64,000 nt of DNA from Candidatus Levybacteria bacterium RIFCSPHIGHO2_02_FULL_40_18 (GCA_001782235.1 MFOC01000007.1:315909-379908), one strand, 5' to 3'. Positions 8,560 to 45,749 are shown, counted from the stretch's first letter. The notes: generated by a model not told the origin, from the letters alone. Made by a program: numbers and translations.

Positions 8560-8845
8560 TTATCCTCTTGCAAAATAAGTTTTCACATAATATATTAAAA
8601 ACGGACTCAGCTTTTCGTAGATCATCTTTTTTTGTGGCGCACTTGTTCAGCAAGGAGATGATCTGAGCTGAGTCCAACAGGTGCGCCATCTTAGATTTAG
8701 GAATACATTAAAAAAATTTTCGCGTTTTCTTTCACTTCTTTTTGTTCTCAAGTTTCCGCCGTTTTCAAAAAGGGCTTTGAAACAATCCGCGCGACCCCCC
8801 ACGCGCGGAAGATTTTTGAGCTTCCTGCAACAGACTCTCTCTGTG

Positions 8846-8916
8846 TCGGGATGTGGGGAATTGAACCCCATCCACACGCACCCCATGCGCGCATTCTACC
8901 GTTAAACTACACCCCG
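8846..8916 (-). tRNA. tRNA-Pro (anticodon GGG)
   Basis: Manual fold of the reverse complement: acceptor CGGGGTG/CATCCCG (one G-U pair), D arm GTTT-AACGGTA-GAAT, anticodon stem CGCGC/GCGTG with loop AUGGGGU (U33, anticodon GGG, G37), T arm GGGG-TTCAATT-CCCC, discriminator A. No CCA is encoded. Confidence 0.8.
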
Positions 8917-12017: not shown

Positions 12018-12139
12018 ACAGAAAAAGGAAAGTGGTTATTTGAGATTAGAGAATAGTAATAGAAATTGGAAATTGGAGAATAGCTATTTTTCTATTCCCT
12101 ATTATCTATTTTCCATTACTAATTTTCATTTTCCAATAA

Positions 12140-13129
12140 CTATTTTCTAGATATAGCTTTTTTAACTGCTGCAATTACGGCGTCTTTGTCCATTTTGTAT
12201 TTTTTAATTAATTCGGCAGGTTTTCCCGATTCTCCAAAAGTATTTTGAAGACCAACGAATTCCATCGGGACAGATTTGTTTCGAACAAGAACTTCTGCAA
12301 TTGCACCTCCCAAGCCTCCTGTGATTTGATGGTCTTCTACTGAAACTGCGGTTCCTGCCTTTTGGGTGAGTTCGAGTATTGATTTTTCATCAATTGGTTT
12401 TATTGTTGAAACATTAGCAACAATCACTTCGATTCCTTGGATTGCGAGTTCTTTTGCGGCGAGGAGCGCCTGGTACAAGAGCCAGCCCATGCTAAAGATT
12501 ACTACCTGAGGTTTATTCGAAGTCCAAAAGACTTGAATTCTCCCGGGCTCAAAAGGAGTTTTTTCGGTGGTCATCACAGGGCTTTTGTCTCGAGTAAATC
12601 TTAGATAAACAGGCCCCTTTATTTTTCCTGCTTCAACAGTTGCTTTTTTGGCTTCAATTGCGTCACAGGGTACGAAAATCTTGATATTTGGCCATGCTCG
12701 GACTGACGCAATATCTTCTGTTGCTTGGTGAGTTGCACCATCAGGGCCTGTCATAATCCCCGAATGATGCCCTGCGATTTTAACATTTGAATCGTTATAT
12801 ATAATAGTTGTACGAATTGTTTCCCAATTCTTTCCGGGAGAAAAAGTTGCGTAAGATGAAATAAAGGCGGTTTTTCCTGAAATTCCAAGGCCGGCAGCGA
12901 TAGCGGCCATGTTTTGTTCGGCAACTCCCACTTCAAAAAAGCGGTCTGGGAATTTTTTAGCAAAGTCTTCAGATTTGGTCGACTCTGTTAAATCAGCACA
13001 AAGAACTACAACATTTGGATCTTGTTCGCCCAATTCTACAAGACCCGCGCCGTAGCCGGATCTCGTTGCATCCATCTCAACATCCTTATCAAAAAGTTTA
13101 GGGTTCAGTTTTAAATCAGGATTTAACAT
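12140..13129 (-). CDS. transketolase, C-terminal (pyrimidine-binding) subunit
   Basis: Transketolase Pyr and C-terminal domain motifs (FFEVGVAEQNMAAIAAGL..., GPDGATHQATEDIA). Pairs with the adjacent N-terminal subunit. Confidence 0.85.
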   Translation of the reverse strand: MLNPDLKLNPKLFDKDVEMDATRSGYGAGLVELGEQDPNVVVLCADLTESTKSEDFAKKFPDRFFEVGVAEQNMAAIAAGLGISGKTAFISSYATFSPGKNWETIRTTIIYNDSNVKIAGHHSGIMTGPDGATHQATEDIASVRAWPNIKIFVPCDAIEAKKATVEAGKIKGPVYLRFTRDKSPVMTTEKTPFEPGRIQVFWTSNKPQVVIFSMGWLLYQALLAAKELAIQGIEVIVANVSTIKPIDEKSILELTQKAGTAVSVEDHQITGGLGGAIAEVLVRNKSVPMEFVGLQNTFGESGKPAELIKKYKMDKDAVIAAVKKAISRK

Positions 13130-13133
13130 AATA

Positions 13134-13236
13134 AGAACTCAAAACTTAAAACTCAAAACTCAAATCTACAACTTTAAATCTTAAAACTTTTTAGATTTGA
13201 GATGTAGTTTTGACATTTGACATTTGAGATTTGACA
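13134..13236. repeat. family-B imperfect palindromic heptamer repeat (aaactca/aaactta ... agatttga/catttga) filling the gap between the two transketolase cistrons
   Basis: The left arm (aactcaaaacttaaaactcaaaactcaaatctacaactt) and right arm (agatttgagatgtagttttgacatttgacatttgagatttgac) are roughly reverse complements. Related fragments occur inside tsaE (54603-54650) and the SpoU gene (24781-24817). Confidence 0.75.
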
Positions 13237-14105: not shown

Positions 14106-15440
14106 CTATTTTCTTAGTACTATTATTAAATCAGATACATTGGAAGGAAGTCTACCCGTAGTAAGATTATCCCGAGTTTTCTTGAAGAACTCAAAACTAT
14201 TGTTGGTTTCCAAATATTTTAGGGGTTCAATCTCTAATTTTTTTGCTCTCTCGATAGTTTTATAGTCGCCAATTGCGCCTGCATGTTCGGTATTGTCCCA
14301 TCCGTCTGAAGCGAACGAACAAATTGTAATATCGCGGCCGACATGCTCAAGTGCTCCTAAAACTAGTTCTTGGTTTCGCCCGCCGCGACCCTCCCTCTGG
14401 GCCAGAGACTCTCTGGGCCGGAGACTCTTTTTTGCTACGTGAACGGTTGTTTCTCCCCCGCAAAGCAAGATCGAATTAAGATGAGTCTCAGAAATCAATT
14501 TTTTGCCTGCATCTCGTGCCTCTGATTCAAATCGATCGGAGAAAATCTCTGCATGGTAGCCTAGGTCTTTGGCCCCTTTTTGCATTGCAGAAAGTGCCGT
14601 ATCGTTACTTAAAACGATTATATTACGAACATTCTCAAAATATTTTTTATCATGAGGATTTTCAATAAAAGCGTCACGCGTCAAATTTAATTCTTGTTCG
14701 AGGTTATATTTTTTAATGATCCCAATTGCATCTTCAATTGTTGTTGGATCGTAGGCTGTTGGGCCTGAGGCAATGGTTGATAGATCATTTCCGGGAACAT
14801 CTGAATAAATCAAAGCTGCCACTTTTGCGGGGTACAAAATTTGAGCTAATCCTCCGCCTTTAACGTCCGATAAGTGCTTTCTGACTATATTCATTTCGGT
14901 AATATTTGCTCCGGATTTCAAAAGCGCTTTGCCGACCTCTATTTTTTGTTCGAGTGATATTGTATGCGGATGAACAAACATGGCAGACCCGCCGCCGCAA
15001 ATAACAACCAAAACAAGATCTTTTTCGGAAAGATTCGAAAGCCTTTCGAGAACCTTTTGGGTGAATTTAAAATTCGTTTCGGACGGAAGAGGATGAGTTC
15101 CCTTAGTAAATTCAAGTTTTTCAAGGCGAGGCCTTGCATGAGCTTGCCTTTCAGGGATGCTAGTATCGATCACGTAACCCTCCGTTAATTTGTCGGAAAT
15201 TAGATTTTCGAGTATCTTAGCATTCTCGGCCGAACCTTTTCCAAAGCCCAAGATAAAGACTCGTTCGAAATCATCCAGATCGAATTCCTGATCGCCGATC
15301 GTCAAAATATTCCCGTGTCTGTGAACGCTTGTTCTGAAAACCTCCTCCGGCTGAATCGAAGCAAGTGCAGCCTCAACAAGCTCTAAAATAATTTTTCTTT
15401 CAGGCGTCTTTGCAATCTCGGAGAAATTCTTAATAAACAT
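14106..15440 (-). CDS. glycerate 2-kinase (MOFRL family)
   Basis: MOFRL-family motifs (VFILGFGKGSAENAK; LVLVVICGGGSAMF; LLCGGETTVHV). Confidence 0.75.
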   Translation of the reverse strand: MFIKNFSEIAKTPERKIILELVEAALASIQPEEVFRTSVHRHGNILTIGDQEFDLDDFERVFILGFGKGSAENAKILENLISDKLTEGYVIDTSIPERQAHARPRLEKLEFTKGTHPLPSETNFKFTQKVLERLSNLSEKDLVLVVICGGGSAMFVHPHTISLEQKIEVGKALLKSGANITEMNIVRKHLSDVKGGGLAQILYPAKVAALIYSDVPGNDLSTIASGPTAYDPTTIEDAIGIIKKYNLEQELNLTRDAFIENPHDKKYFENVRNIIVLSNDTALSAMQKGAKDLGYHAEIFSDRFESEARDAGKKLISETHLNSILLCGGETTVHVAKKSLRPRESLAQREGRGGRNQELVLGALEHVGRDITICSFASDGWDNTEHAGAIGDYKTIERAKKLEIEPLKYLETNNSFEFFKKTRDNLTTGRLPSNVSDLIIVLRK

Positions 15441-15669: not shown

Positions 15670-16827
15670 ATGGACGATAAAGCTAAATATAGAAAAAAGC
15701 TTGAGGAGGTCTCAAGGATTTCTCTTGAAGAAGCAAAGAGGCAAATTTTAGAAGAAGCAAGAGACGAGGCAAAAGAGGATATTGCCAAAATAATCCGTGA
15801 GGCAGAAGAGGAGGCAAAGGCCACAGCTAATATCAAATCCCGGGAAATTCTTGCAGATGCGCTTCGCCACGGAGCATTAGATATCATTCCCGAATATACT
15901 GTTTCAGTTATAAAAATTCCCGATGAAGACATCAAGGGAAGAATTATTGGTAAGGAAGGTCGCAATATCCGCGCTTTTGAGACCGCAACCGGCGTTGATG
16001 TAGGACTTGATGAGGAAGGGATGATTCGTTTATCTTCCTTTGATTCGGTCCGCCGCGAAATAGCAAGACGTGCCCTCGAACTACTAATTAAAGATACTCG
16101 AATTCAACCAATTCGCATAGAAGAAGTCGTCGAACAACAAAAAAAGGAAGTCTCAAGAATTCTCTTTGAAGAAGGTCAAAAAATTGCAGAAGAAATTGGG
16201 GTATTAAATATTCATCCTGATCTTCTGTCAATGTTAGGACGCTTTAAGTTCAGAACTTCTTTTGGGCAAAATTTGGTAGTCCATTCTCTTGAAGTAGCAA
16301 AAATTGCAAGTCACCTGGCAGTAGAAATTGGTGCGAATGTTGAAATTGCAAAACTCGGGGCACTTTTTCATGATATAGGTAAAGTTGTATCGGACAAAGA
16401 AGGAAGTCACGTGCAATTAGGAGTCGAATTATTACAAAAATACAAAATGCCTCGGGAGGTAATCAATGCGGTGGCAGAGCATCATGAAGATAAGCCATTC
16501 TCGTCAATCGAGTCAGTTCTTGTATATATTGCGGATGCGGCGTCCGGCGGCCGCCCCGGCGCGCGTCATGAAGACGTTGAGGGATACGTTAAGAGAATCC
16601 GCGACATGGAGGAGATTGCAAAAGGGTTCAACGGAGTAACAGATGCATTTGCTTTTGAAGCAGGGAGAGAACTACGTGTAGTCATGGATCCCGGGAAAAT
16701 GGATGACATTGAAACTACAATTGCCGCCAAAAGAATAAAAGAAGAAATCGATAAAAAACTGATTGTCCCGGGCGTTGTTCGAGTAACAGCGATCCGCGAA
16801 TTTCGAGTTTCCGAACCAAAAGAGTAA
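15670..16827 (+). CDS. rny: ribonuclease Y
   Basis: KH domain (IIGKEGRNIRAFETATGVDV) and HD domain (HSLEVAKIASHLAVEIGANVEIAKLGALFHDIGK), with the conserved RPGARHE. Start taken at MDDKAKY; the N-terminal TM helix seen in many RNase Y proteins is missing. Confidence 0.85.
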   Translation: MDDKAKYRKKLEEVSRISLEEAKRQILEEARDEAKEDIAKIIREAEEEAKATANIKSREILADALRHGALDIIPEYTVSVIKIPDEDIKGRIIGKEGRNIRAFETATGVDVGLDEEGMIRLSSFDSVRREIARRALELLIKDTRIQPIRIEEVVEQQKKEVSRILFEEGQKIAEEIGVLNIHPDLLSMLGRFKFRTSFGQNLVVHSLEVAKIASHLAVEIGANVEIAKLGALFHDIGKVVSDKEGSHVQLGVELLQKYKMPREVINAVAEHHEDKPFSSIESVLVYIADAASGGRPGARHEDVEGYVKRIRDMEEIAKGFNGVTDAFAFEAGRELRVVMDPGKMDDIETTIAAKRIKEEIDKKLIVPGVVRVTAIREFRVSEPKE

Positions 16828-18980: not shown

Positions 18981-21938
18981 TTAGTTGGCGGAACACAACA
19001 TTTTATATTCGCAGTTTTTGCAGATAATGCTCCTTGAGCACTTAAAGTCGCTTGATTCGATTTGTTCAATTTTCTTAAGAATTAGTTCACGAATTTCATC
19101 TATTCTTTCTTGCGTCATATCTTCCGATTTCTTTTTTCCCTCCTCTAGATATAAAAGAGAAACTCTTATATCTTCCGGTTTTCTTTTTAAAATCTTCTCT
19201 TCAACTTCTGTTGCGGCTAGAGCATAGACTCCTAGCTGTAAAGTATAGTTAAACTGCGACATTCCAGCAGACTTTCCTGTTTTGTAGTCGACAATCTCGA
19301 TCTTTCCATTTGAAAGCTTATTTATCCTATCAATTTTCCCGACAATTTTAACTGGATTTTTATGTTCGCGTTTAAGAAAAAAAGCAAAAGGCAATTCAAG
19401 AGAAACCGGTAAATTTTTGGGGTCAAACATTTTTTTATAATAATCCTTGACTATCTTCTCGCCAAGCGCAAACATCTTCCTCTCATAAGACTTATCGGAA
19501 TATCCTTCCGAAATCCATTTTGCCTGCAGTAAATTCAAAAAATCTGATAACGTTTGTTTCTTTCCATGTCGAAGAGCCTCGTAAAAATAATAGAAAGCGT
19601 CATGGATCGAACTTCCAAAAGAAAGAGGAGCGGTTTGAGGTGTTGGTAAATTCAATAAATGTCTTGCCCTGAAATGCAAAGGACAAATGTCAAAACTTTG
19701 TAATTGAGAATAGGAGATTCGTTCGATAGCTATTTGGGCCAAAGGCTCATCAGCCTCTGGCTGAAGCTTTTGAGGAGATTCTTGATAATCCCTTATTGTT
19801 TCGACTAATGATAATTGTTTTTCTTTTTTTTCACTTTCAATTTTCCTTATTAGATCTGGGAGCGCTTCAAAAACGAAAGGAGAAATTTTCCTCTCTCTTT
19901 TTCCGTCCGCATAAAATCTTGAGGCAGTGAAAAACAATAAGTCGCGAGTTCTGGTCATGCCTACATAAAAAAGTCGCCTTTCTTCCTGAAGATGATGATC
20001 CCCGAGAGGCACTATCTCTTTAATTAGTTGTTCGTTCAAAGGAATTTTTTCTCTTCTTTCTCTTGTCGGAAAGCGATCAACAACAAGATTCACCATAAAA
20101 ACAACCGAAAACTCAAGGCCCTTACTTCCATGCACTGTTAAAATATTGACAGCGTTCACTTCCTTAAAATCTATGTCTGAGACAAGAGGACTATCGCCTA
20201 TCTCCATTTGAAGGTCAAGCCAATCAACTATAGAATATACGTTTGCTTCAGGGTTTAGAGTTTCAAAAGTTTTGATTCTGTCAAAAAACTTTGCAATATT
20301 ATTTGCTTCTTTTTCGTCTTTTTCAGTTTTTATGTCTAGAAACGAATTTAAAAGCCCTGAATCAAGTAAGAAATAATAAAGAATTTGTCCAGGCGAATCT
20401 TTCTTAACTCTTTCTAAATGTCTTAAAATCATTTTTACTATTTTTTGGGCCTTTGCTTTTGTCTGATTCGGCAAGTCTGTTTCGTTCGCATGCTCGAGTG
20501 TTTCAAATAAAGTCCAATTTTTCTTTCGATTCCACGCTAAGAATTGATTAATTTCGCGCGATGTAAAGCTAAATATATCCATGTTTAAAACACGATATAG
20601 CGAAACTGAATCGTCAAGATTATATAAAACTTTAAAATAAGCAATTAGATTTTTGATCTCCTCCCGCTGGAAAAGATACCCCAGGCCTAGGAATTGGTAG
20701 GGAATTTTATTTCTTTGTAAGGAGACCATTATGGGTTGGGCGTGATTGTTTGCGCGGACAAGAATTGCGATATCTGAATACTTGTAATTTGACCCCGATT
20801 TAATCGGGGTTGAATTTCTCATAATCGATTTAATTTTTTGGGCGATTTTTTCTGCTTCTTCATCAACTCTGTCTGTTAAAATAATTTCAATAGGTTTCCC
20901 CCGAATTTTTCTTTCGGATACTAATTTTTTGTTTATGTTCTCAACAACCTCCAAACGATTTGGATTATTATTTTGAATCATAGCATAAGCGCGATCTAGA
21001 ATTTCTTGAGTAGATCGATAATTTTTAATCAAGGTTATAATTTTTGCTTTTGGGAAGTTATTCCTGAATTGTATTACGTTTGATAAAGCCGCTCCTCGCC
21101 AGCGATAGATCGCCTGGTCATCATCCGCAACAACGGTAATATTTTGCTGTGCTCCGGAAAGGAGCATCGCTAGCTCATTCTGCGCATAGTTAGTATCCTG
21201 AAATTCATCAACCAGAATATACTTGAATTGATTTTGATATCGCTTAAGAATATTTTTTCTGATTCGAAGTAAAAACAGTGCTTGAGAAATTAAATCTGCA
21301 AAATCCAACATCCCTTCTTTTAATTTAAGCTGCGAATATTGTTTATAAGCATTTGCTAATTCGAGGGTTTTCTCGACCTCAAGAATCTCCTCATCTTCTT
21401 TTGACTTTTTCCGCCCGAGGCGGATCAGCCTTTGGCTAAGGCTTTGGGCGAAGCTAACATATTCATCGGGTGTTATGTCTTCATCCGCAAGCCTTGAGAA
21501 GTGTGTTAGTAATGCTTCTAAAAACTTGTTCGGACTTCCAAGCGGGCGAAAATATTCAAGATCAAGTTTAAATAGGTGTTTTTTGAGGAACAAGATACTT
21601 TCTGATTCTGTAATTAACTTAAAATTTGGGTTTAATCCTATTGAAATTCCTTCTTGGCGAAGTATATTGTCGCAGAAAGTGTGGAATGTTGAGATCCACA
21701 TTTGGGTGTATCCATAGGGCATTATCCGGTCAACCCTGTCCTCCATCTCCTTTGCAGCCTTATCAGTAAACGTTAAGGCAAGAATTTCGTCCGGTTTTGC
21801 CAATTTTTGCTTGATTAGATATTTGATTCGCTCGGTAATCACGGTGGTCTTGCCAGTTCCTGCTCCTGCAATAATTAAAAGAGGTCCGATTCTATGTTCA
21901 ATTGCCTTCTTCTGTTCGGAGTTTAGTTTGAGAGCCAT
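18981..21938 (-). CDS. UvrD/PcrA-family ATP-dependent DNA helicase fused to C-terminal RecB/Cas4-like PD-(D/E)xK nuclease domain
   Basis: N-terminal GAGTGKTT Walker A and UvrD helicase motifs (DEFQDTN, VGMTRTRD...). The C-terminal ~250 aa carry a RecB-nuclease-like region (IEIVDYKTGK) ending in a Cys cluster (CSRSIICKNCEYKMLC), as in AddB/Cas4 Fe-S nucleases. Confidence 0.8.
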   Translation of the reverse strand: MALKLNSEQKKAIEHRIGPLLIIAGAGTGKTTVITERIKYLIKQKLAKPDEILALTFTDKAAKEMEDRVDRIMPYGYTQMWISTFHTFCDNILRQEGISIGLNPNFKLITESESILFLKKHLFKLDLEYFRPLGSPNKFLEALLTHFSRLADEDITPDEYVSFAQSLSQRLIRLGRKKSKEDEEILEVEKTLELANAYKQYSQLKLKEGMLDFADLISQALFLLRIRKNILKRYQNQFKYILVDEFQDTNYAQNELAMLLSGAQQNITVVADDDQAIYRWRGAALSNVIQFRNNFPKAKIITLIKNYRSTQEILDRAYAMIQNNNPNRLEVVENINKKLVSERKIRGKPIEIILTDRVDEEAEKIAQKIKSIMRNSTPIKSGSNYKYSDIAILVRANNHAQPIMVSLQRNKIPYQFLGLGYLFQREEIKNLIAYFKVLYNLDDSVSLYRVLNMDIFSFTSREINQFLAWNRKKNWTLFETLEHANETDLPNQTKAKAQKIVKMILRHLERVKKDSPGQILYYFLLDSGLLNSFLDIKTEKDEKEANNIAKFFDRIKTFETLNPEANVYSIVDWLDLQMEIGDSPLVSDIDFKEVNAVNILTVHGSKGLEFSVVFMVNLVVDRFPTRERREKIPLNEQLIKEIVPLGDHHLQEERRLFYVGMTRTRDLLFFTASRFYADGKRERKISPFVFEALPDLIRKIESEKKEKQLSLVETIRDYQESPQKLQPEADEPLAQIAIERISYSQLQSFDICPLHFRARHLLNLPTPQTAPLSFGSSIHDAFYYFYEALRHGKKQTLSDFLNLLQAKWISEGYSDKSYERKMFALGEKIVKDYYKKMFDPKNLPVSLELPFAFFLKREHKNPVKIVGKIDRINKLSNGKIEIVDYKTGKSAGMSQFNYTLQLGVYALAATEVEEKILKRKPEDIRVSLLYLEEGKKKSEDMTQERIDEIRELILKKIEQIESSDFKCSRSIICKNCEYKMLCSAN

Positions 21939-24555: not shown

Positions 24556-25086
24556 TTATTTATTTCTCTCGAGGGATTTGTAAAGGACTATTGCCAGACT
24601 GACTATTACATTGAGGCTGACATTTACGCCAAACAGGGGGAGTTCGACAATTTGATCTGAGATTTCAAGAGTCTCTTTTGAGACGCCGCGGGTCTCATTT
24701 CCAACTACTAGCGCGATAGGGAATTCGTAATCTGCCTCCGTATATGGAATACTTTTCGAAGATTGCTCAATCGCAATCACTTTTAGATTTAAGATGTAAG
24801 ATTTAAGATGTAAGATGGCGGATTTGGTGTCAACGACATGCTCCCAGTCGACCCATTCGGTTGTGTTAATCGAAGCCTTCTTGATTCGGGAATTTGGCGG
24901 GGTTTCAGTGTATCCGCAAAGCAAAAGTTTTTTTGCAGCAACTGCATCAGCCAATCGAAAAATTGCACCGACATTATATGTATCCAAGACGTTATCAAGA
25001 ACTATATAAATATCGTTTTTTTTGATTTTACCTTTTTCTTTTTCAGAGGATGAGCTCCGCCTCAATTTATATGCGTTTAACTTCAT
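24556..25086 (-). CDS. SpoU/TrmH-family RNA 2'-O-methyltransferase
   Basis: SPOUT motifs (IYIVLDNVLDTYNVGAIFRLADA ... ALVVGNETRGVS ... LNVIVSLAIVLY). Confidence 0.75.
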   Translation of the reverse strand: MKLNAYKLRRSSSSEKEKGKIKKNDIYIVLDNVLDTYNVGAIFRLADAVAAKKLLLCGYTETPPNSRIKKASINTTEWVDWEHVVDTKSAILHLKSYILNLKVIAIEQSSKSIPYTEADYEFPIALVVGNETRGVSKETLEISDQIVELPLFGVNVSLNVIVSLAIVLYKSLERNK

Positions 25087-27152
25087 TGTTCACTTGGGGC
25101 AGGGGTAGATGGCACAGCTTGTTTCACAAGTTGGGCTTTAGTCCACACCGCAAAATCACACTTTGGATAGTTGCCGCATCCGTAAAATGTTCGGCCGCGG
25201 CGCGTCCTTTTCAGTACCATCTTACCTTGGTCGCGAGGGCATAAGTAACCCGATTCCTCAGCAAAAGATTCACGGAATTTGCAGTTCGGAAAATTAGAGC
25301 ATGCCTTAAACTTACCGAATCTACCGATTCTAATAACAACGTCACCGCCGTCGAGCGGACATTTTTCGCCTGTTTTTTCAAGCTCAATCTTAATTTTTTT
25401 CTCCTCTTGCGCATCTTTTAAGTGCTTCTCGAATGGTCCGTAAAATTCTTTTATAACCGGAACCCAGTCCGTTTTACCGTCTGCTACCTCATCAAGTTTG
25501 TCTTCCATAGACGCTGTAAAAGGAATATCATCTATTGTTGAGAAGTTTTTAACCAAAAAATCATTCACCAGAGTCCCTATCTCAGTTGGCTTAAAGCGAT
25601 TTTCTTCTTTTTCAACATAAAATCTTGCTTCTATTGTTGAAATAATCGGCGCATAAGTTGAGGGACGTCCGATTCCGTGTTCCTCAAGCGCACTAATCAA
25701 AGATGCTTCACTATATCTTGGAGGCGGATTGGTATTGTGAGAGGTGATATTAATTTTGCGAAGATCCAATTTTTCATCTTTTTGAAGTTCCGGTATCAAC
25801 TGCTCTTCATCCTCGTAAAACCAGATTTTAAGAAATCCATCGAATTTTATCACGCGACCATTTGCTACAAAATCATAAGCTTTGCTATCTTTCACCTGGG
25901 CCTCGACTCGGGTAGAAAGGAATACTGCATCTGCCATTTGAGTTGATAGAGCTCTTTTATATATAAGACTGTAAAGCTTTGCAAAATCTCTTCCGAGTTT
26001 TGCAGTGACCGTCTCTTCATCTTCGAATAAATTAGTGGGGCGTATTGCTTCGTGTGCTTCTTGAGCAAGCTTTGATTTCGTATGGTAAATTCGGGGTGTT
26101 TGAGGTAGGTATTTTCCCCCAAAATTTTTCTCAATATAATTTCTTGCAGCGGATATAAATTCATTCGAAAGATTGTAGGAATCGGTTCTGTGATAGCTTA
26201 TAAAGCCTTCTTCATATAATCTCTGTGCTAAGCCCATGGTTCGTTTACTTGTGTAACCGAAACGGCGAGAAGCCTCAATCTGAAGAAGCGATGTGGTAAA
26301 GGGAGGATAAGGCGCACGTTTTGTTTCTTTTTGAATTACGTCTGTAACAACAAAATCTTTATTTGCAAGATCGTTCTGGATTGATTCGGCATCCGTGTTC
26401 GACAATCGGGTTTCGGCATATTTGTATTCCCCATCATAAAGAGGTAGGGTAGTTGTTTTTTCAATCGGCTCATCGTTTATCTTAACCAACTCAAAAGTTA
26501 TCGGCTGGTTTTCTCCCCTCCAGGCCGGAGGCCCTCCAGGGCCGGAGGCCTGTTTATTAACGACGACAAAAACTCTATAAAATTCTGTGCTTTTGAATTT
26601 TTCAATTTCGCGCTCACGCTCAACAATTAATCGAAGCGCTATAGACTGAACGCGACCGGCTGACAATCCCTTTTTGATTTTCATCCAAAGAATTGGCGAA
26701 AGCTTGTATCCTACAACTCGATCTAAAACACGTCTTCCGGTTTGCGCGGCAACAAGATTCATGTCTATCTCCTTTGGATGTTCCAAGGCTTCGTTAATTG
26801 CGGTAGGCGTGATTTCATGGAAGACAATTCGATCGAACTTAGTTTTCTTATTTTCCTCCGATAAAACCGTTTTGAGATGATATGAGATTGCTTCTCCTTC
26901 GCGGTCCGGATCTGTTGCCAAAATTATTCGATCGACATCTTTTACTTCCTCAATTAAACCCTCAACAATTTTCCTCTTATCTTTTGGGATTACATACGAG
27001 GGTGTGAAGTCATGATCAATATCCACCCCCAAAGCCCCCTTTGGCAAATCTCGAATATGCCCCATCGATGCCTCTATTTTGTACTTTTCTCCAAGAAACC
27101 TCGATAATGTTTTCGCCTTAGTGGGAGACTCGACAAGTATTAAAGATTTCAT
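25083..27152 (-). CDS. topA: DNA topoisomerase I
   Basis: Toprim N-terminus (LILVESPTKAKTLSRFLG...GHIRDLP), the Topo IA core, and C-terminal Zn-ribbon repeats (CPLDGG..., CPRDQGKM..., CGNYPKC). Confidence 0.9.
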   Translation of the reverse strand: MKSLILVESPTKAKTLSRFLGEKYKIEASMGHIRDLPKGALGVDIDHDFTPSYVIPKDKRKIVEGLIEEVKDVDRIILATDPDREGEAISYHLKTVLSEENKKTKFDRIVFHEITPTAINEALEHPKEIDMNLVAAQTGRRVLDRVVGYKLSPILWMKIKKGLSAGRVQSIALRLIVEREREIEKFKSTEFYRVFVVVNKQASGPGGPPAWRGENQPITFELVKINDEPIEKTTTLPLYDGEYKYAETRLSNTDAESIQNDLANKDFVVTDVIQKETKRAPYPPFTTSLLQIEASRRFGYTSKRTMGLAQRLYEEGFISYHRTDSYNLSNEFISAARNYIEKNFGGKYLPQTPRIYHTKSKLAQEAHEAIRPTNLFEDEETVTAKLGRDFAKLYSLIYKRALSTQMADAVFLSTRVEAQVKDSKAYDFVANGRVIKFDGFLKIWFYEDEEQLIPELQKDEKLDLRKINITSHNTNPPPRYSEASLISALEEHGIGRPSTYAPIISTIEARFYVEKEENRFKPTEIGTLVNDFLVKNFSTIDDIPFTASMEDKLDEVADGKTDWVPVIKEFYGPFEKHLKDAQEEKKIKIELEKTGEKCPLDGGDVVIRIGRFGKFKACSNFPNCKFRESFAEESGYLCPRDQGKMVLKRTRRGRTFYGCGNYPKCDFAVWTKAQLVKQAVPSTPAPSEQ

Positions 27153-28377: not shown

Positions 28378-28610
28378 AAATTGTTTCGCCTGCCCCGTAT
28401 AAGCGTCCTCGCGACGCGAGGACGAAGACCTCGGGAGTAAGTAAGCTTTGTGCGGGGTCACAAGAGGTCTCAATAGCCAAAACTCTCATTGAAATAAAGA
28501 AATTGGTTGTAAGAAATTGGAAAATGGTTATGGAAACTAGATATTGGAAATTGGTTTGTTTTAAAAAACTATTTTCTATTTTCCTATAACTATTTTCTAT
28601 CTTCTCTTTG

Positions 28611-29584: not shown

Positions 29585-29735
29585 ATAGTTAATAAGAAAT
29601 TGGTTGTTGGAAATAAGAAAATGGTAATAGAAATTAGATATTAGAAATTGGTTTTTATTTATTTTTATTTAACTATTGTCTATTTTCTACTTTCCATTAC
29701 TAATTTCCATTTTCCTATAACTATTTTCTAATATA
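29585..29735. repeat. family-A palindromic heptamer-periodic intergenic repeat (~150 bp), copy A3; near-identical inverted copy at 46495-46650, shorter variants at 12030-12150 and 28487-28612
   Basis: The reverse complement of 46502-46648 aligns almost base for base with 29592-29733. Shared blocks are tagaaattgg, aaaatggtaatagaaa, ccattactaatttccattttcc and ataactattttcta. Confidence 0.85.
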
Positions 29736-37919: not shown

Positions 37920-39182
37920 ATGCTTGATATTAAGTTTATTCGGGAGAATCCGGATAAAGTTCGTGAAGGGGCAAAAAATAAAAATATCAATGTTCCGATT
38001 GATGAAATACTTCGTCTAGACCAAGAACATCGCGAATTGTCTCGGATACTCCAAGAATTGTATACCCAAAGAAACCGCGCCGCAAAAGAAAGAGATATTG
38101 AAGGCGGTCGGGAGGTTAAAGCAGAGGTTGATTCTAGCGAAGATAAACTTGGGAAAATCAAAGAAAGATTGGATGAACTTCTTTATGCCGTACCAAATTT
38201 GCCGGCCCTTGATGTAAAAATAGGAAAAGACGAATCGGAAAATGAGATTATTCGAAAAGTTGGTTCGCCGAAAAAGTTTTCATTCAAAGTTCGTGACCAT
38301 GTTGAGTTGGGAGAATTGCTTGAAATTATCGACCTTGAACGAGCAGCAAAAGTTTCCGGTACCCGATTCGCATATTTAAAAAATGAAGGAGTTCTTCTTG
38401 AATTCGCACTCGCCCAATTTGCCTTAGACAGCTTAATAAAGGAAGGATTTATTCCGATAATTCCGCCCGTGCTTATTAAGACGGAAACAATGAAAAAGGT
38501 CGGTTATATGGAACACGGTGGGGATGAGGACATGTTTCATATCGAAAAAGATGGTTTGACCCTCGTGGGAACTGCCGAGCATTCAATCGTCGCAATGCAT
38601 CAAGACGAAACATTTTTGGAACGTGATCTACCTGTAAGATATGTCGGGTTTTCATCTGCCTTCAGGCGTGAAGCGGGATCTTACGGCAAAGACACTCGGG
38701 GAATTCTTCGCGTCCACCAATTTGATAAAGTAGAAATGGTTTCATATACGACTCCTGAAAAGAGCGATAGTGAACAAGACTATCTTTTGAATATTGAAGA
38801 GAAGTTTTTTCAGGCGCTCAAGATCCCTTATCAAGTTGTCAAAATGTGTACAGCCGATTTAGGATTTGTTCAGGCCAAAAAATATGATATTGAAGCATGG
38901 ATTCCGTCTCAAGAGAAATATCGAGAGATGACCTCCGCATCGCATCTTACAGATTTTCAAGCAAGACGGTTGAATATTAAATTCCTGCCTGCCGGCAGGC
39001 AAGGCCAAAAAGGTTTGGAAAAAGAATTCATACACACTCTCAACGCCACAGGTTTTGCAATTGGCCGAACTTTAATTGCAATTCTTGAAAATTATCAAGA
39101 AAAGGATGGTTCAGTTGTTGTACCAGAAATTTTGCGAAATTACGTAAATATAGATAAGATTTCACCAAAGAAATTAAAATAG
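37920..39182 (+). CDS. serS: serine--tRNA ligase
   Basis: N-terminal coiled-coil arm and the class II core (FRREAGSYGKDTRGILRVHQFDKVE). Confidence 0.9.
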   Translation: MLDIKFIRENPDKVREGAKNKNINVPIDEILRLDQEHRELSRILQELYTQRNRAAKERDIEGGREVKAEVDSSEDKLGKIKERLDELLYAVPNLPALDVKIGKDESENEIIRKVGSPKKFSFKVRDHVELGELLEIIDLERAAKVSGTRFAYLKNEGVLLEFALAQFALDSLIKEGFIPIIPPVLIKTETMKKVGYMEHGGDEDMFHIEKDGLTLVGTAEHSIVAMHQDETFLERDLPVRYVGFSSAFRREAGSYGKDTRGILRVHQFDKVEMVSYTTPEKSDSEQDYLLNIEEKFFQALKIPYQVVKMCTADLGFVQAKKYDIEAWIPSQEKYREMTSASHLTDFQARRLNIKFLPAGRQGQKGLEKEFIHTLNATGFAIGRTLIAILENYQEKDGSVVVPEILRNYVNIDKISPKKLK

Positions 39183-39579
39183 TTAAAATGGTTGGAATAG
39201 TTGAATGGTTTTGATAGCCATGTAACCATGTAGCTATTTTAGCCATTGGCTCTTTTGATTTTTGTTGATTTATCAGTCTAAACCTTAATTTTCGAAGCAG
39301 GCAATTTTCTTGACAAAATTTTTTATTTTTTTCACGATTAAATTGGAGCATAATAAGTTCTAGTTTGAGATACTGTTTGGTCCGCCAGACCTTACTTTAG
39401 GGCTTTTCAGTATTATTCATACACGCCCTAAAGAGCGGTCTTCGGCGGACGTAAGAAACTGTAAACTCACTTTACAGTTCGTTAACAGTTTCTAACGGAG
39501 GTGATATTTTCATGGCAAGAAAAAAAGCAAAGAGAAGGAAGAGGAGATAAAATAAATTCCAAAGAATGATCATCTTTTG

Positions 39580-39737: not shown

Positions 39738-42512
39738 ATGCTTGGTGTTTTGTCTAAGTTTTTTGACTCAAACGAGCGAGAGATTAAAAAATTTTTACCC
39801 ATTGTTGATGAGATCAATGCTCTTTCGGAGAAAACTAAAAAACTTCGCGATTCTGATTTTCCAAAAAAAACAGAAGAACTAAAAAAAAGAATAGAAAAAG
39901 GCGAAAGTATTTTCATGGTTTTACCTGAAGCTTTCGCTCTTGTACGTGAAGCTTCTCTAAGAACCACGGGTTTACGGCCATATGATGTTCAACTAATCGC
40001 GGCCACTGTTCTTTCTCAAGGCAAAGTCGCAGAGCAAAAAACAGGAGAAGGAAAAACTCTTTCGGCAGTCCCCGCCCTATACTTGAACGCCCTTACAGGC
40101 AATACGGTTCATCTTGTTACCGTAAATGACTATCTTGCTCGTCGTGACGCAGGATGGATGGGGGCAATTTTTGACTTTTTAGGAATGAACGTTTCCTCAA
40201 TAATTTCCGATGCTTCTTTTATTTACGATACCAAATACACAGATGAATCGGCACAGGACTTCAGGCTCCTTCATCTCAGGCCTATATCTCGAAAAGAAGC
40301 ATATCAAGCCAATATAGTTTACGGAATCAATTCTGAATTTGGATTCGATTATCTTCGCGACAACATGGTCTTTAATAGCGAACAATTGGCTCAAACAGGA
40401 CACACATATGCAATTATTGATGAGGTAGACTCGGTTTTAATCGATGAAGCAAGAACGCCCCATATAATCTCAATGCCGGACGCTACGCCTTCCCAAAAAT
40501 ATTATGAATATGCAAAAATTGTCGATAAACTCAACAAGGAAATAGACTATAAAGTAGATGAGAAGACAAGAACTGCACACTTAACAGATCACGGGATTGA
40601 AAAGGTTGAAAAGCTTTACGGCGTCAAAGATATATATGAAAAGGATTTTGATACGGTTTATCATATAGAAGCCGCTCTTAAGGCAAATACCCTGTTTCAT
40701 AAAGACCGCGATTACATTGTCCGCGACAACCAAGTTATTCTAGTTGATGAGTTTACCGGAAGACTTCTTGAAGGAAGGCGTTTGTCAGAAGGTCTCCATC
40801 AGGCAATTGAGGCAAAGGAAGGCGTCGCGATCCAGCAAGAGTCAAAAACTCTTGCAACTGTTTCTCTTCAAAACTACTTCAGAATGTATGAAAAGATTGC
40901 GGGAATGACGGGAACAGCCGTAACTGAGGCTGAGGAGTTTCAAAAGATCTACAAACTTGATGTAGTTTCGATCCCTACTCATAAAGAGATGATTCGCGAA
41001 GATCTTGGCGATCAGATCTATAAGACTACGCGCGCAAAAGTGGCTGCAGTAGTTAGGGAGATTGAGGAAGCACATAAAAAAGGACAGCCGGTGTTAGTTG
41101 GCACTACATCAATTGATAAGAACGAAATAATTTCAGAATATCTAAAAAGAAAAGGGATCCTGCACGAGGTTTTAAATGCTAAAAATCACATTCGGGAGGC
41201 AATGATTATTCAGAATGCGGGTAAAAAAGGCGCGGTTACAGTTGCGACAAATATGGCTGGTCGAGGGGTAGATATTATTTTAGGAGGCCAGCCTCCATCA
41301 CAATTTGATATTGCCCACAAGGGAAAAAGCGGTCAGAAAAAACTTCGTGAAGATATGGAGAGATGGCAGAAGGAGCATGATGAGGTGGTCTCGCTTGGCG
41401 GGCTTTATTTAATTGGTACCGAAAAACACGAATCAAGAAGAATTGATAATCAGCTAAGGGGAAGATCTGGCCGCCAAGGAGATCCCGGAAAATCTATGTT
41501 CATTGTTTCTTTGGAGGATGATCTTATGAGAGTCTTTGGGGGAGAGCAGATTTCAAACCTAATGACTCGGTTTAATTTTCCGGAGGATCAACCACTCGCC
41601 CATGGTTTAGTTTCGCGTGTTATAGAACAAGCGCAAGTCAAGGTAGAAGGGTTTAATTTTGAAGCAAGAAAACACCTTCTTGATTATGACGATGTTTTAA
41701 ACAAGCAAAGAGAAATTATCTATAAAATGAGACAAGGAGTAGTAGGGAATGAAGCCGCCGGCCCAGAGGCCTCTGGCCAGAGGGATGATATAGTTGAAAT
41801 AGTTTTAGGGAAAGTCGCGAGCGTAATTGCAAATAATGTTCAATTTAATCTTTCAACAGAAACCCAAGAAGACGGGCGCAAAACCATAATTTCGGAATTC
41901 GCAAGCATTGTCCCCTTTGATGAACATTCGCAAGAACATCTCTATAAACAAATTCAGCAATATCAAACCGCAGAACAAATTTCGGACTTTTTAATCGGAA
42001 TAGCAAAGCAAATTTCTAAGAAATGGGAAGAGCAATTTGGCCGCGATCATTTGGCTCACGCATATAAAATCGTATTTCTATCAACAATCGATAATCTCTG
42101 GATGGACCATTTAACCTCGATGGAAGATCTTAGAACAGGAATCGGGCTACGGGGCTACGGACAGAGAGATCCTCTTATCGAATACAAAAACGAGGCATTT
42201 ACCATGTTTGAGCGTTTAATTTCGCAAATTGACGACGGTATAGCTCACCGCGCTTTTCGAATTAACATCGGAGAAATTCCTCCTCCGGCAGTCAGAGTAA
42301 ATATACAAGCAAACGTTCCGGAGTCAGAAGTGGGAGAAAAAGCTGAGAAGGTTAGCCGAGCTCCGCAAATCGCGAATCGAACAGAAATAGCTTCGAATAA
42401 TAATTTGAATGGTACTACAGGTGTCGAAAAAAAGAAAATCGGCCGCAACGACCCCTGCCCTTGCGGTTCGGGAAAGAAGTGGAAAAAGTGCCACTATCCC
42501 AACCTCCCATAA
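39738..42512 (+). CDS. secA: preprotein translocase ATPase SecA
   Basis: SecA DEAD motor motifs and the C-terminal Zn finger CPCGSGKKWKKCH. Confidence 0.92.
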   Translation: MLGVLSKFFDSNEREIKKFLPIVDEINALSEKTKKLRDSDFPKKTEELKKRIEKGESIFMVLPEAFALVREASLRTTGLRPYDVQLIAATVLSQGKVAEQKTGEGKTLSAVPALYLNALTGNTVHLVTVNDYLARRDAGWMGAIFDFLGMNVSSIISDASFIYDTKYTDESAQDFRLLHLRPISRKEAYQANIVYGINSEFGFDYLRDNMVFNSEQLAQTGHTYAIIDEVDSVLIDEARTPHIISMPDATPSQKYYEYAKIVDKLNKEIDYKVDEKTRTAHLTDHGIEKVEKLYGVKDIYEKDFDTVYHIEAALKANTLFHKDRDYIVRDNQVILVDEFTGRLLEGRRLSEGLHQAIEAKEGVAIQQESKTLATVSLQNYFRMYEKIAGMTGTAVTEAEEFQKIYKLDVVSIPTHKEMIREDLGDQIYKTTRAKVAAVVREIEEAHKKGQPVLVGTTSIDKNEIISEYLKRKGILHEVLNAKNHIREAMIIQNAGKKGAVTVATNMAGRGVDIILGGQPPSQFDIAHKGKSGQKKLREDMERWQKEHDEVVSLGGLYLIGTEKHESRRIDNQLRGRSGRQGDPGKSMFIVSLEDDLMRVFGGEQISNLMTRFNFPEDQPLAHGLVSRVIEQAQVKVEGFNFEARKHLLDYDDVLNKQREIIYKMRQGVVGNEAAGPEASGQRDDIVEIVLGKVASVIANNVQFNLSTETQEDGRKTIISEFASIVPFDEHSQEHLYKQIQQYQTAEQISDFLIGIAKQISKKWEEQFGRDHLAHAYKIVFLSTIDNLWMDHLTSMEDLRTGIGLRGYGQRDPLIEYKNEAFTMFERLISQIDDGIAHRAFRINIGEIPPPAVRVNIQANVPESEVGEKAEKVSRAPQIANRTEIASNNNLNGTTGVEKKKIGRNDPCPCGSGKKWKKCHYPNLP

Positions 42513-42624: not shown

Positions 42625-43269
42625 ATGGTTACAGTGCCTGAAGCTACTAAAAAGATTGTCGAACGTTCAAGATATCTTTCAGAGGCTATCTCGAAAGGTC
42701 TTATAAACTATTCGTCTCTTGCACGCTATATAAAGCCTGAACTTGAGGAAATGCTTTTAAAAAAAGTAAGCATCGCATCTATAATTATGGCTTTAAACCG
42801 CCTCGAATCTGATTTTCAACCAAAGTTTACGCAAAGCAATATTTTTAAAACTCCTCCGGAAATCACAGTTCGCTCAAATCTGATCTTAGCAGGGCTGTCG
42901 AATATTGATGTTCAAGGGCTATCGATACTTATCTCGCGTGACACTAATTCTCGTTCGCTTTTTTTAAAAAATCAGGGGATACACGAGGCCTCGTTTATTA
43001 TGAGTCAAGATTTATTCGAGAAATACAAAAATACTATAGAAAGCAAGAATCCTTTGGTGTTTCAGGATAAAGTTTCGACCATTACAATTTACCTACCCAA
43101 GGAAGCGCAGGAAACCTCTGGAATCTATTATTTTTTTCTAAAATCCCTTGCCTGGGAGGGTATAAACATACTCGAATTAGTTTCAACACCACAAGAACTT
43201 ACCATTGTTGTTTCCGACCATGATGTCGAGAGAGCGTTTGGTATTATTAAGTCCCTGTTCGCTTCCTAA
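42625..43269 (+). CDS. hypothetical protein (possible ACT-like regulatory domains)
   Basis: 214 aa with two beta-alpha-beta-beta-alpha-beta-like segments. Weak call. Confidence 0.35.
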   Translation: MVTVPEATKKIVERSRYLSEAISKGLINYSSLARYIKPELEEMLLKKVSIASIIMALNRLESDFQPKFTQSNIFKTPPEITVRSNLILAGLSNIDVQGLSILISRDTNSRSLFLKNQGIHEASFIMSQDLFEKYKNTIESKNPLVFQDKVSTITIYLPKEAQETSGIYYFFLKSLAWEGINILELVSTPQELTIVVSDHDVERAFGIIKSLFAS

Positions 43270-44750
43270 TCTTTCGAATCATAATTGACTTTGTACAAAT
43301 AAGCAGTTCCGATTTGCTTCTCAAGTCTTATTTTCCCAACCTTTTCCATATTTTTTACTCCCTCGCGAAAGTTCCGGGGGCTTTCGAGAAGCTGAATGAG
43401 AGTTTGTTGCTCGCTTAAGTTAACCATTATATATTCGGCTTCTTTTGGGAAATCAAGCCACCAGCAGAGCTTTCTTCCGCAGGGATTATTCTCAATTTCA
43501 TGTTCGCGAGGATATATTAGATAGATTTGGTTTCTGTGAGAAATGTGGGGGACTATGTTTTGCGTCGAGGCAATACTCGCATCTTTCGGGATAGACGTGA
43601 TTAGCTTTCCCGTGTCTTTCATCCATTGTTCGCTCTTATAATATATTGGCTTTGACAATTTATTTAGAGCAAAGTGGAATTTGTATTGCAGGAGGAGAGC
43701 TACGGATACCATTACAATAGCAATAATCTCGGGCTTTCCCGCGAAGCGGGATCCCGCCCTGCGGGAAAATTTTCGCTTCAAAATATTAATTGCGTCCAGA
43801 GTCCCCAATAGTAAAAATGGTGCAAGGATTGCCCTGTGATGCATAAATGGGCTCCACATTCGTGCAAAGGCTTCGCCCGTTACAAAATATTGCGAAAGAT
43901 CAAGCGTAACCGCAAGAATTGCTCCGGGCGAGAGAAGAGGAAGAGCGGAGAACCAGGAAAATGAATAAAGCCACACCTGTTGTTTTTCTTGGCTATTGAA
44001 GAAATTGCTGATTAGATTTGCTGGCTGTAAGTCGATTTGAGGTGTATATTCGAACCCAATCGGCGAGAAATATCGAGTTAGAGTGATAGCGATAAGCGTT
44101 GCTAAAAAACCTCCAAAGATGAATCCTAGCGCAGCTTTACGATATTGTTTTTGAAACAAATAAATAAGTCCCAGAGAAGCAAGGGCGATGCCCATGTTTT
44201 CCTGTGTTAGAAGTAGTAAAATTATTGATCCGGATAACAGTTTCCAGTTTTTTGTTTCCAAAAAATAAGCGATCCAAGGAATTAAACCCACCCCTATTGC
44301 AACGGGATGAAAATCAAAAAATACCAAAAATTGTATTCCGTAGAAAAGGCTATAGACAAAGCTTAAACATAGGGCTACTAATGAAAAATAGCCTCTATTT
44401 CGCACCAAAAGAAATATGGGAAGCGCAGAAAGACTTACCCAAAACGCCTGAAAAAGCAATAAGATTCTTACATCATCCCAAATCCAAAAAAGGGGCGAAA
44501 GAAGCGGGAGAGTTAACGCAAGATGATCACCTAAGATAAACCTATTTTTAATTGTGTTGTATGGAGCCTGAAATTGAGAATATTGCCAGATGGATTGATC
44601 GTAAAGACCAAGATCAAAGGCGCCCGATTGGAAATTGTTATGTCGCACAATAGAAAGTGTCGAATAGAGCATAGTCAAAGTAACAATCCATACAAACAGA
44701 AGCTTTACGGAAGATCGTTCGATTAATGGAATAAATCCCTTAAGATTCAT
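43266..44750 (-). CDS. DUF2079-family integral membrane protein
   Basis: Polytopic protein with the DUF2079 N-terminal motif (RHNNFQSGAFDLGLYDQSIWQ). Confidence 0.7.
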   Translation of the reverse strand: MNLKGFIPLIERSSVKLLFVWIVTLTMLYSTLSIVRHNNFQSGAFDLGLYDQSIWQYSQFQAPYNTIKNRFILGDHLALTLPLLSPLFWIWDDVRILLLFQAFWVSLSALPIFLLVRNRGYFSLVALCLSFVYSLFYGIQFLVFFDFHPVAIGVGLIPWIAYFLETKNWKLLSGSIILLLLTQENMGIALASLGLIYLFQKQYRKAALGFIFGGFLATLIAITLTRYFSPIGFEYTPQIDLQPANLISNFFNSQEKQQVWLYSFSWFSALPLLSPGAILAVTLDLSQYFVTGEAFARMWSPFMHHRAILAPFLLLGTLDAINILKRKFSRRAGSRFAGKPEIIAIVMVSVALLLQYKFHFALNKLSKPIYYKSEQWMKDTGKLITSIPKDASIASTQNIVPHISHRNQIYLIYPREHEIENNPCGRKLCWWLDFPKEAEYIMVNLSEQQTLIQLLESPRNFREGVKNMEKVGKIRLEKQIGTAYLYKVNYDSKD

Positions 44751-44804: not shown

Positions 44805-45677
44805 ATGGATTCTTCAGGACACTATAGAAAGCTTGCGGATAAGTGGATCAAGCGGCACCGTGATTTTCAGGAACAGTTGTGGGCTTCGCACGGAGATGCA
44901 ATAAATGACTTTATAAACAGCACAAAAAATTTTGCCATTGGGTCAATCTCGGGGCTAATGCTTTTATCAAGTCCAGCCGCAAATTTAATTGGGCCAGTCA
45001 GTGCGCTGACGGTCGAAGAACAAAAATTACCCGTAGATAAAAGCGCTTTTTTGGCCTCAGATGTTCTTTCTGTTTTGCCAAAGGAGGTTCGTCCATTAAC
45101 GCCGGAAGAAGAAAATTCCATTTCTCAGATTTTTACTCGGGATTTTGGGTTTAAAGTCGCACATGAACTTTCAGGTATTCGATTGAATCGATCATATGGT
45201 TATATAGGGGCCGAGCAGCATCTGGCGCGATATCCCGGTGACACAATGACTACTCATTTCGAGGATAGTTCGGATAGTTCAAAATTCTATTCGTCCGGAA
45301 TGGCACCGGGACTGGGTGCCTGGGGTTATTTTGCAAATTCTCGTTCGGAATTAACCCAAAAAGACATAGATCGTGAGAAATATTATATTGCCGTTCAAAC
45401 ATTTCTTGCTCCGGGATTCGCGGAGCACACGGGAAAATACATTACTTTTTTTAAATTTCGGAAAATGCTTGTAGTGAATCCTCATACCGGGCGTGCTATA
45501 GTAGTGGTGATAGGTGATGCCGGACCCGCTGAATGGACTGGAAAGAGTTTGGGCGGGTCGCCCGAGGTTATGAAGTATCTTGAGCGTGTTGACGGTAGCG
45601 GGAGAGGGCCGGTTCTGTATTTTTTTATAGACGATCCAGAAGACAAGGTTCCACTGGGACCAATCGAAATTAAATAG
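44805..45677 (+). CDS. hypothetical protein with possible RlpA-like double-psi beta-barrel domain
   Basis: The C-terminal segment LVVNPHTGRAIVVVIGDAGPAEWTGKSLGGSPEVMKYL resembles the DPBB pattern V.V.N..NGR.V.V.V.DRGP. Confidence 0.35.
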   Translation: MDSSGHYRKLADKWIKRHRDFQEQLWASHGDAINDFINSTKNFAIGSISGLMLLSSPAANLIGPVSALTVEEQKLPVDKSAFLASDVLSVLPKEVRPLTPEEENSISQIFTRDFGFKVAHELSGIRLNRSYGYIGAEQHLARYPGDTMTTHFEDSSDSSKFYSSGMAPGLGAWGYFANSRSELTQKDIDREKYYIAVQTFLAPGFAEHTGKYITFFKFRKMLVVNPHTGRAIVVVIGDAGPAEWTGKSLGGSPEVMKYLERVDGSGRGPVLYFFIDDPEDKVPLGPIEIK

Positions 45678-45740: not shown

Positions 45741-45749
45741 GATTACTCT

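Follow-up and report, generated by a model that had tools for sequence, protein, structure and literature searches.

A GC-rich in-frame insert in topA of a Levybacteria genome matches a dispersed 36-nt hairpin repeat family

We examined a 64,000-nt stretch of DNA (the window) from Candidatus Levybacteria bacterium RIFCSPHIGHO2_02_FULL_40_18 (GCA_001782235.1, MFOC01000007.1:315909-379908), with emphasis on a short GC-rich palindromic segment lying in frame within topA, the gene for DNA topoisomerase I. A covariance model of the 36-nt repeat family to which this segment belongs, R1, was used to scan the window without filters and found exactly three copies, in topA, in secA and in a glycerate-kinase-like gene, all of them sense to the host gene. 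The host gene and the copies are as follows.

25083..27152, minus strand: topA, the host gene, encoding a type IA DNA topoisomerase I of 689 aa, otherwise intact
26515..26550, minus strand: 36-nt GC hairpin core in topA, a near-consensus member of the family
26514..26552, minus strand: presumably translated insert, TopA codons Q201-G213, reading QASGPGGPPAWRG
41753..41785, plus strand: diverged copy of the element in secA, sense, encoding AAGPEASGQR (R1 score 30.7 bits, E=6e-5)
14392..14426, minus strand: diverged copy in the DUF4147/MOFRL glycerate-kinase-like gene, sense (R1 score 28.3 bits, E=2e-4)

The topA insert and its relatives in secA and the kinase gene

The host gene encodes the domains of a type IA topoisomerase I, with Toprim (residues 4-114), Topoisom_bac (129-567) and two C-terminal Zn_ribbon_Top1 domains in Pfam, and its product matches bacterial topoisomerase I homologues in the PDB at E-values down to 1e-138. 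Minus-strand topA is the sole long open reading frame (ORF) across the insert. On the coding strand, the core is GGCCTCCGGCCC TGGA GGGCCTCCGGCC TGGAGGGG. It is read in its context as AAT AAA CAG GCC TCC GGC CCT GGA GGG CCT CCG GCC TGG AGG GGA GAA AAC, encoding N K Q A S G P G G P P A W R G E N, so that the insert is presumably translated; the corresponding tryptic peptide is QASGPGGPPAWR. A GC-rich, self-complementary, in-frame palindrome had been reported here by a first-pass annotation of the DNA, and such a palindrome, an imperfect one, is indeed present. The 33-mer given in that annotation occurs exactly once (plus strand, 26520-26552), with 0 occurrences expected in 100 shuffles. The GC contrast estimated there (about 75% against 35-40%) was also about right, the GC content being 0.83 in the 36-nt core and 0.71 in 26511-26555, against 0.40-0.41 in the 200-nt flanks and 0.39 in the window. 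As RNA, the coding strand of the core folds as ((((((...(((((....)))))...)))))) at -24.3 kcal/mol, that is, a 6-bp stem, a 3x3 internal loop, a 5-bp stem and a tetraloop, and this minimum free energy fold is the same as the structure of the R1 model.

The insert had been placed between the topoisomerase core and the Zn ribbons, which proved wrong, as residues 201-213 lie inside Topoisom_bac. Alignments to solved TopA structures are interrupted exactly at the insert region, and residue 195 of the query corresponds to about residue 225 of E. coli TopA, a region that we take, from the E. coli structure, to belong to domain II, away from the Zn-ribbon junction. In an AlphaFold2 model of the protein (mean pLDDT, the predicted local confidence score, 83), the insert lies in the turn between the strands 190-200 and 218-225, and nowhere else within the chain does pLDDT fall below 50 except at residues 205-212. 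The insert, rich in Gly, Pro and Ala, is thus predicted to be a disordered surface loop that tips a variable beta-hairpin in domain II.

We aligned the 120 best TopA homologues, of which the closest named ones are from Candidatus Levybacteria (candidate phyla radiation [CPR]/Patescibacteria). No conserved TopA residues were found at the segment, which faces gaps in 118 of the 120 orthologues, including the nearest sisters at 85-87% identity; the two non-gap proteins are a near-identical one (P0001) and one with unrelated sequence there (P0002). The empty site of a sister lineage (L003) reads AAT AAA AAG AAT GAC AAA CAG CCG, and the net gain in the window topA relative to its orthologues is 33 nt, or 11 residues. 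In a neighbour-joining TopA tree built with the loop masked, the window TopA stands beside the insert-free P0004, and P0002 stands beside the insert-free P0003 and P0006 (91% identical), with P0010 further out; insert-bearing lineages are therefore interleaved with insert-free ones. By these alignments, the insert was acquired once this Levybacteria lineage had diverged from the closest relatives sampled. Further TopA lineages carry partly decayed GC-rich insertions in the same loop.

An assembly or sequencing artefact, or a chimeric adaptor-like sequence, would be a trivial explanation for such a segment. It is true that the genome matches to the family all come from metagenome-assembled genomes (MAGs) and none from isolates, and that GenBank phages and PLSDB plasmids gave none. 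However, 26 contigs of Rifle Levybacteria MAGs, from four repositories (NCBI, JGI, ENA and Logan), encode a protein (P0121) identical to the window TopA, and an identical TopA in independent assemblies and pipelines rules out an assembly artefact. In addition, the reading frame is kept with the insert in topA, secA, the kinase gene and two further genes described below, metG and fpg, and the matches include long-read contigs of 0.15-1.6 Mb. Taken together, there is almost no chance that the segment is an artefact.

The two other window copies behave in a similar manner. The secA segment is missing from SecA orthologues at 83-85% identity. The kinase copy encodes (S)LRPRESLAQRE just ahead of the conserved motif GRGGRNQE. 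Against T. maritima TM1585 (2b8n) it faces a gap of 12 residues, directly ahead of GGRNQE, and it is missing from orthologues at 85% and 80% identity. The empty kinase site (L159) reads AAA AAA AGC / GGT CGA, and the window has exactly 33 extra nt, giving the clean junction AAAAAAAGC / 33 nt / GGTCG. A 73%-identical kinase orthologue (L158) also has 33 extra nt at the same junction, which are themselves a family member (41 bits). By these comparisons, all three window copies are lineage-specific in-frame insertions. The topA and kinase inserts had been thought to share an identical core. Their homology stands, as judged by the R1 score of the kinase copy, but the 10-mer is not identical, since the kinase copy reads GGGCCGGAGa, with 9/10 bases matching.

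A second lineage-specific insertion was seen in the kinase-like gene at about 15120-15145 (residues ~94-101, IPERQAHA). It is common to the 85%-identical orthologue P0126 and overlaps a CAAGGC-CTC-GCCTTG hairpin; kinase orthologues of other lineages have palindrome-encoded insertions (LPANA...ALQAG) a few residues upstream of this site.

The same positions have received other insertions elsewhere. At the same topA codon boundary, two lineages have GC-rich hairpin elements of another kind: one lineage (L001) carries TCCCGCGAAACGGGATCCCGCCCTGCGGGA and another (L002) carries CCGCCTTTGGCGAGTCTCGCCTCTGGCGG, which folds in the architecture of the topA core (5-bp stem, 3x3 internal loop with UCU on the 3' side, 5-bp stem and small loop). 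Three other lineages have different insertions at the SecA position, and the loops of TopA, SecA and the kinase-like protein all carry different insertions in other lineages, with mostly protein-level evidence for SecA and the kinase. Such independent insertions at the same loop position in several lineages, in all three proteins, might be taken to mean that the loop extensions are selected protein features, lengthened for function, with the palindrome as mere raw material. We consider this explanation quite improbable. It is the nucleotide sequence that is conserved and not the peptide, given that other frames and orientations of the element yield different peptides (ASGPEGPPARR, GRRPGGASGPEG and PSGPEALQGRRP); moreover, the TopA loop is predicted to be disordered, and most orthologues work without the insert.

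The L001 insertion is one base off a segment of the window at 43737-43766, where a DUF2079 membrane-protein ORF (43266..44750, minus strand) contains in frame TCCCGCGAAGCGGGATCCCGCCCTGCGGGA, encoding SRRAGSRFAG. This sequence consists of two tandem 15-nt GC-rich hairpins, and hairpins resembling it adjoin the 36-nt core in the metagenome composites L037, L063, L096, L130 and L132.

The 36-nt repeat in other genomes

The family was reached from short GC islands elsewhere in the window, which led to the similar sequences in the kinase-like gene and secA. A census with the exact 9-mer GGCCGGAGG matched the topA element alone; this search was too strict, and a covariance model was needed. The family consensus is GGCC-K-CC-GGCCC-NNNN-GGGCC-TC-Y-GGCC-C-GGAGGG, and the topA copy matches R1 over its full length (positions 1-36) with 55.7 bits and E=2.7e-10.

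A degenerate pattern derived from the window copies matched 13 viral-contig stretches in IMG/VR, in which bases left free by the pattern were conserved as well; one viral copy (L012) differs from the topA insert essentially by one C>T. With a stricter pattern, 16 stretches were found in GTDB representative genomes of at least eight phyla, all of them MAGs. The Patescibacteria hosts are Levybacteria (2), Curtissbacteria (2), Woesebacteria, Saccharibacteria and another Patescibacteria bacterium, and the others are an archaeon, NC10, two Proteobacteria, Verrucomicrobia, Syntrophaceae, Desulfobacteria and two unclassified genomes. A metagenome scan that left the 5' arm free gave at least 119 stretches, and the free bases came out as NGCC(G/T). 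Altogether, the genome-wide motif census called for by the first-pass annotation was extended to these collections and yielded more than 100 further copies, the family amounting to at least 147 instances, with 106 distinct flank contexts and 63 distinct cores among the matches listed. These cores are all exactly 36 nt long. They start with NGCC and end with CGGAGGG (the opposite strand starting with CCCTCCG), fall into two subtypes, GCC...TCT and TCC...TCC, and have loops that are mostly NNRA. Several contigs carry multiple copies, and contig ends are no more than 150 nt away for 17% of the matches listed, where 7% would be expected, an enrichment typical of repeats. The 36-nt hairpin is thus a conserved repeat dispersed over many contexts and taxa.

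This census effectively refutes a local origin of the topA segment through replication slippage, template switching or hairpin-primed repair, with no family relationship. Template switching can yield palindromic insertions, and the genome does have other short palindromic in-frame insertions of unrelated sequence, but the same 36-mer, 1-2 bases off, recurs in ~100 unrelated contexts and organisms among the matches listed, and the E-value of the topA copy points the same way. We regard a local origin as very improbable.

Among loci with a GC content below 0.56, 14 of the 100 distinct contexts listed are inside long ORFs (6 sense, 8 antisense) and the rest are intergenic. In-frame copies elsewhere lie in the genes for MetRS (metG) and Fpg (fpg) in Curtissbacteria, for an XerC/D-like recombinase from a MAG of Syntrophaceae and for phage proteins; an Hsp20 fusion is a further ORF host. 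Most metagenome copies cap a longer hairpin, with flanks that are C-rich and then TTT on the 5' side, and AAA and then G-rich on the 3' side. Several composite families exist, and nested composites and neighbouring hairpins of another family, family B (TCCCGC..GCGGGA x2), occur. Family B itself had no match among viral contigs.

A composite of ~200 nt, M2 (L039, L046, L050, L078 and others), is bounded by terminal inverted repeats of 14 bp, GTAATCCCTCAGTT...AACTGAGGGATTAC, and the 36-nt core caps one of its several internal hairpins; it matches no Rfam family. In the composite copies L075, L082 and L094, extra GC hairpins are inserted in the tip of another hairpin.

The conservation of unpaired positions (internal loop KCC/TCY and tail CGGAGGG), the prevalence of NNRA loops and the extreme sequence conservation across phyla are what would be expected if the motif were primarily a functional structured RNA module, such as a hairpin bearing or masking a Shine-Dalgarno-like GGAGG, a transcript stabilizer or a protein binder, of which the topA copy would be a co-opted or incidental case. 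Two further points speak for such a module: in several cases from CPR bacteria and viral contigs (such as L009, L021, L023 and L031) the copy stops 3-15 nt before a start codon, and all three window copies are sense to their host gene. Nevertheless, the copies inside long ORFs show no orientation bias among the matches listed, and one would not look for a regulatory hairpin midway through topA, secA, metG and fpg, in reading frames that differ. Immediately after the 3' GGAGG, genes start only slightly more often than on the opposite side and strand (10 versus 4 of 69), an excess too weak for Shine-Dalgarno activity as a general function, which we rejected; use of the GGAGG tail in this manner is occasional at best. 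The flanking genes are unrelated (384 families among 482 ORFs), and Rfam 15 gave no match at gathering or permissive thresholds (best 13 bits, versus thresholds of 40-77). Selfish DNA is favoured over a strand-specific RNA function by the unbiased orientation in ORFs together with the unrelated neighbours, and an RNA module as the primary nature of the motif is in our judgement unlikely, if still worth keeping in mind.

Bulge-helix-bulge introns, group II intron domain V, diversity-generating retroelement hairpins, CRISPR repeats and T4-type translational bypass were set aside on sequence and architecture, from general knowledge. A consensus BLAST search against GenBank phages and PLSDB plasmids gave no match, which may in part be due to the low-complexity filter. 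No account of the repeat turned up in the literature, searched both by sequence string and by concept in CPR bacteria.

Candidate mechanism and comparison with known elements

The reading that we favour, with a probability of roughly 0.7, is that the topA segment is one copy of a dispersed 36-nt hairpin family that spreads as a non-autonomous mobile element and is tolerated in coding DNA. Spread of this kind would depend on recognition of the hairpin, probably as single-stranded DNA, by an enzyme encoded elsewhere. The recognized parts may be the lower stem, the conserved 3x3 internal loop, the upper stem, the variable NNRA loop and the 3' tail CGGAGGG. Insertion would take place without target duplication, with a preference for sites beside A/T-rich stretches and for the tips of other hairpins. 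The most plausible model for recognition through the hairpin would be REP/RAYT (repetitive extragenic palindromic sequences and their associated transposases) or IS200/IS605-type single-strand transposition. Occasional transfer between organisms might follow, with viral contigs as possible carriers. The element would persist in genes because its length is a multiple of three, because it is G+C-rich and largely stop-free, and because selection retains only copies in tolerant surface loops.

Several points weigh against this reading. Mobility is deduced from sequence comparisons rather than from direct observation. A near-isogenic pair with and without the insert was looked for and not found, the insert being present in every member of the 90% TopA cluster, and no target-site duplication is found at either kinase junction (window and L158). 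The 148 nearest neighbour genes show no enrichment of transposases, recombinases or reverse transcriptases. Copy number looks low, with 3 copies in 64 kb and a single match in each of the 16 GTDB stretches. In addition, the near-identity of the 36-mer between CPR bacteria, Desulfobacteria, NC10 and an archaeon is not easily accounted for by selfish spread and nothing else, and could stem from the constraint of a conserved binding partner. That the same loops are used again and again could likewise be due to selection and not to targeting.

We class the element as a short palindromic non-autonomous repeat outside every named family with which it was compared. The elements nearest to it in kind are mitochondrial GC clusters, REPs and the palindromic elements of Rickettsia. 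Like the Rickettsia palindromic elements (RPEs), it is a palindrome found in frame in unrelated housekeeping genes with no transposase of its own, and RPEs add to their host proteins translated peptide segments that the fold can accommodate (PMC10969869), as is probably the case for the 36-nt element. RPEs, however, are ~100-150 bp long and form genus-restricted families, each with a conserved peptide, whereas the present element is four times shorter, is common to several phyla and viral contigs, occurs in several frames and both orientations with no conserved peptide, and is extremely G+C-rich within an A+T-rich genome.

REPs and REPINs, which are mobilized by RAYT (Y1/HUH) proteins, are 20-40-nt G+C-rich imperfect palindromes that often form part of a longer hairpin (PMC3733652). 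Their loop is variable, whereas unpaired bases and a single-stranded extension are conserved, as seen here. By analogy, REP/RAYT would be the most plausible mechanistic counterpart, with recognition as a single-stranded DNA hairpin. On the other hand, REPs are extragenic and species-specific, are usually present in tens to hundreds of copies and have a RAYT gene flanked by REPs, and they bear a GTAG/CGTC tag that neither strand of the 36-nt consensus carries. The 36-nt element lies inside long ORFs in the 3 window copies and in 14/100 of the other contexts listed, and its sequence is common to several phyla. No Y1 transposase was seen near 148 copies, Y1_Tnp not being among the top families of the 148 nearest neighbour ORFs, a result that covers neighbouring genes only.

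The mitochondrial GC clusters, such as GC42 of yeast, are likewise 30-50-nt G+C-rich palindromes scattered in A+T-rich genomes (PMC4478555). Related mitochondrial hairpin elements (PMC4478555; PMC2800124) are the double-hairpin elements of Allomyces, the repetitive hairpin elements (RHEs) of sponges and the byps of Magnusiomyces, and elements of this kind show sporadic distribution, interspecies transfer, merged or nested composites and an occasional location in coding regions. The element studied here is sporadic among close relatives, contrasts in GC content with its surroundings (0.83 versus 0.39) and forms composites, and these composites and neighbouring hairpins mirror the 'merger and shuffling' of GC42 (PMC4478555); the resemblance to GC clusters is one in kind only. 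The mitochondrial clusters are organellar, and GC42 has a putative AG target duplication, whereas the clean kinase junction has none. Ribosomes bypass byps, unlike the 36-nt copies, which have open frames and are presumably translated.

[quoted passage not shown] They are typically at least 50 bp and often more than 100 bp long, and owe their terminal inverted repeats and target-site duplications to a parent insertion sequence, whereas the 36-nt core has neither of these and is a hairpin rather than a unit bounded by terminal inverted repeats. MITE-like terminal inverted repeats (14 bp) are present only in the ~200-nt M2 metagenome composite.

It is possible, although we advance it tentatively and would not expect it on present odds, that the 36-nt unit is an undescribed minimal mobile element that crosses phyla and domains. 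At 12 codons, a stop-poor hairpin would be suited to essential genes and to hairpin tips; it would be moved by a hairpin-specific enzyme or by a host-universal process and be carried between CPR bacteria, Desulfobacterota-like bacteria, archaea and viruses, and the recurrent codon boundary would be a true site preference. If so, it would be a natural and repeated source of new surface loops in conserved enzymes. If the element is mobile, as in the favoured reading, it would rank among the smallest self-propagating DNA units known and would repeatedly supply loop insertions to essential enzymes such as TopA, SecA, MetRS and Fpg. In-frame palindromic invasion of housekeeping genes has so far been known as an oddity of Rickettsia and of mitochondria. 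In the streamlined genomes of candidate phyla a far smaller unit, of 36 nt, does likewise, and its sequence also occurs in unrelated phyla and viral contigs. In practical terms, the element breaks contigs when metagenomes are assembled and gives rise to spurious 'lineage-specific insertions' when proteins are aligned.

Other palindromes and repeats in the window

A purely structural scan of the window for two-stem GC hairpins yielded the topA copy alone, and the window therefore contains no large sequence-free structural superfamily. Palindromic in-frame mini-insertions seem common in this genome, because the UvrD/PDDEXK helicase gene (18981..21938, minus strand) has short palindromes at 20792-20810 and 21410-21424. 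In this gene, ACCCCGATTTAATCGGGGT corresponds to a window-specific 7-residue insertion, STPIKSG, that is missing from four syntenic orthologues, and TCCGCCCGAGGCGGA lies within a variable stretch.

The GC island of the RNase Y gene at 16525-16583 was considered as a fourth insert and rejected, as it encodes a conserved ADAASGGRPGARHE motif present in orthologues. The island is 93% GC, uses nearly all G/C-ending synonymous codons where two relatives use A/T-ending ones, and can form a GCGGC...GCCGC hairpin.

Perfect GC-rich palindromes were also found at two non-coding or leader positions. One, CGTCCTCGCG-A-CGCGAGGACG, lies at 28404-28424, upstream of the likely tsaD start, and the other, TCCGCGCG-ACCCCCCA-CGCGCGGA, lies at 8786-8809 and adjoins tRNA-Pro (8845-8916). 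Both are possible terminators, or else additional hairpin elements.

Intergenic repeats that are long and A+T-rich lie at 29588-29733, 46503-46648, 12015-12149 and 28486-28599 and are made of heptamer-like units (such as GAAATTG, GAAAATG and TTTCTAT). One pair of them has 146-nt arms that are 97% complementary and 17 kb apart, and each copy is itself a large local palindrome. Another intergenic repeat family, TAAATAGTTAAAATGGTTAAAATAGTT / AACCATGTAGCCATTTAACTATTTAGCTATT, occurs in direct and inverted copies at 39164-39254, 45659-45749, 50553-50621 and 59398-59479. Short tandem repeats of the AACTCAAAAC type are present at 13136-13187 and 54590-54641, with inverted partners at 13199-13234.

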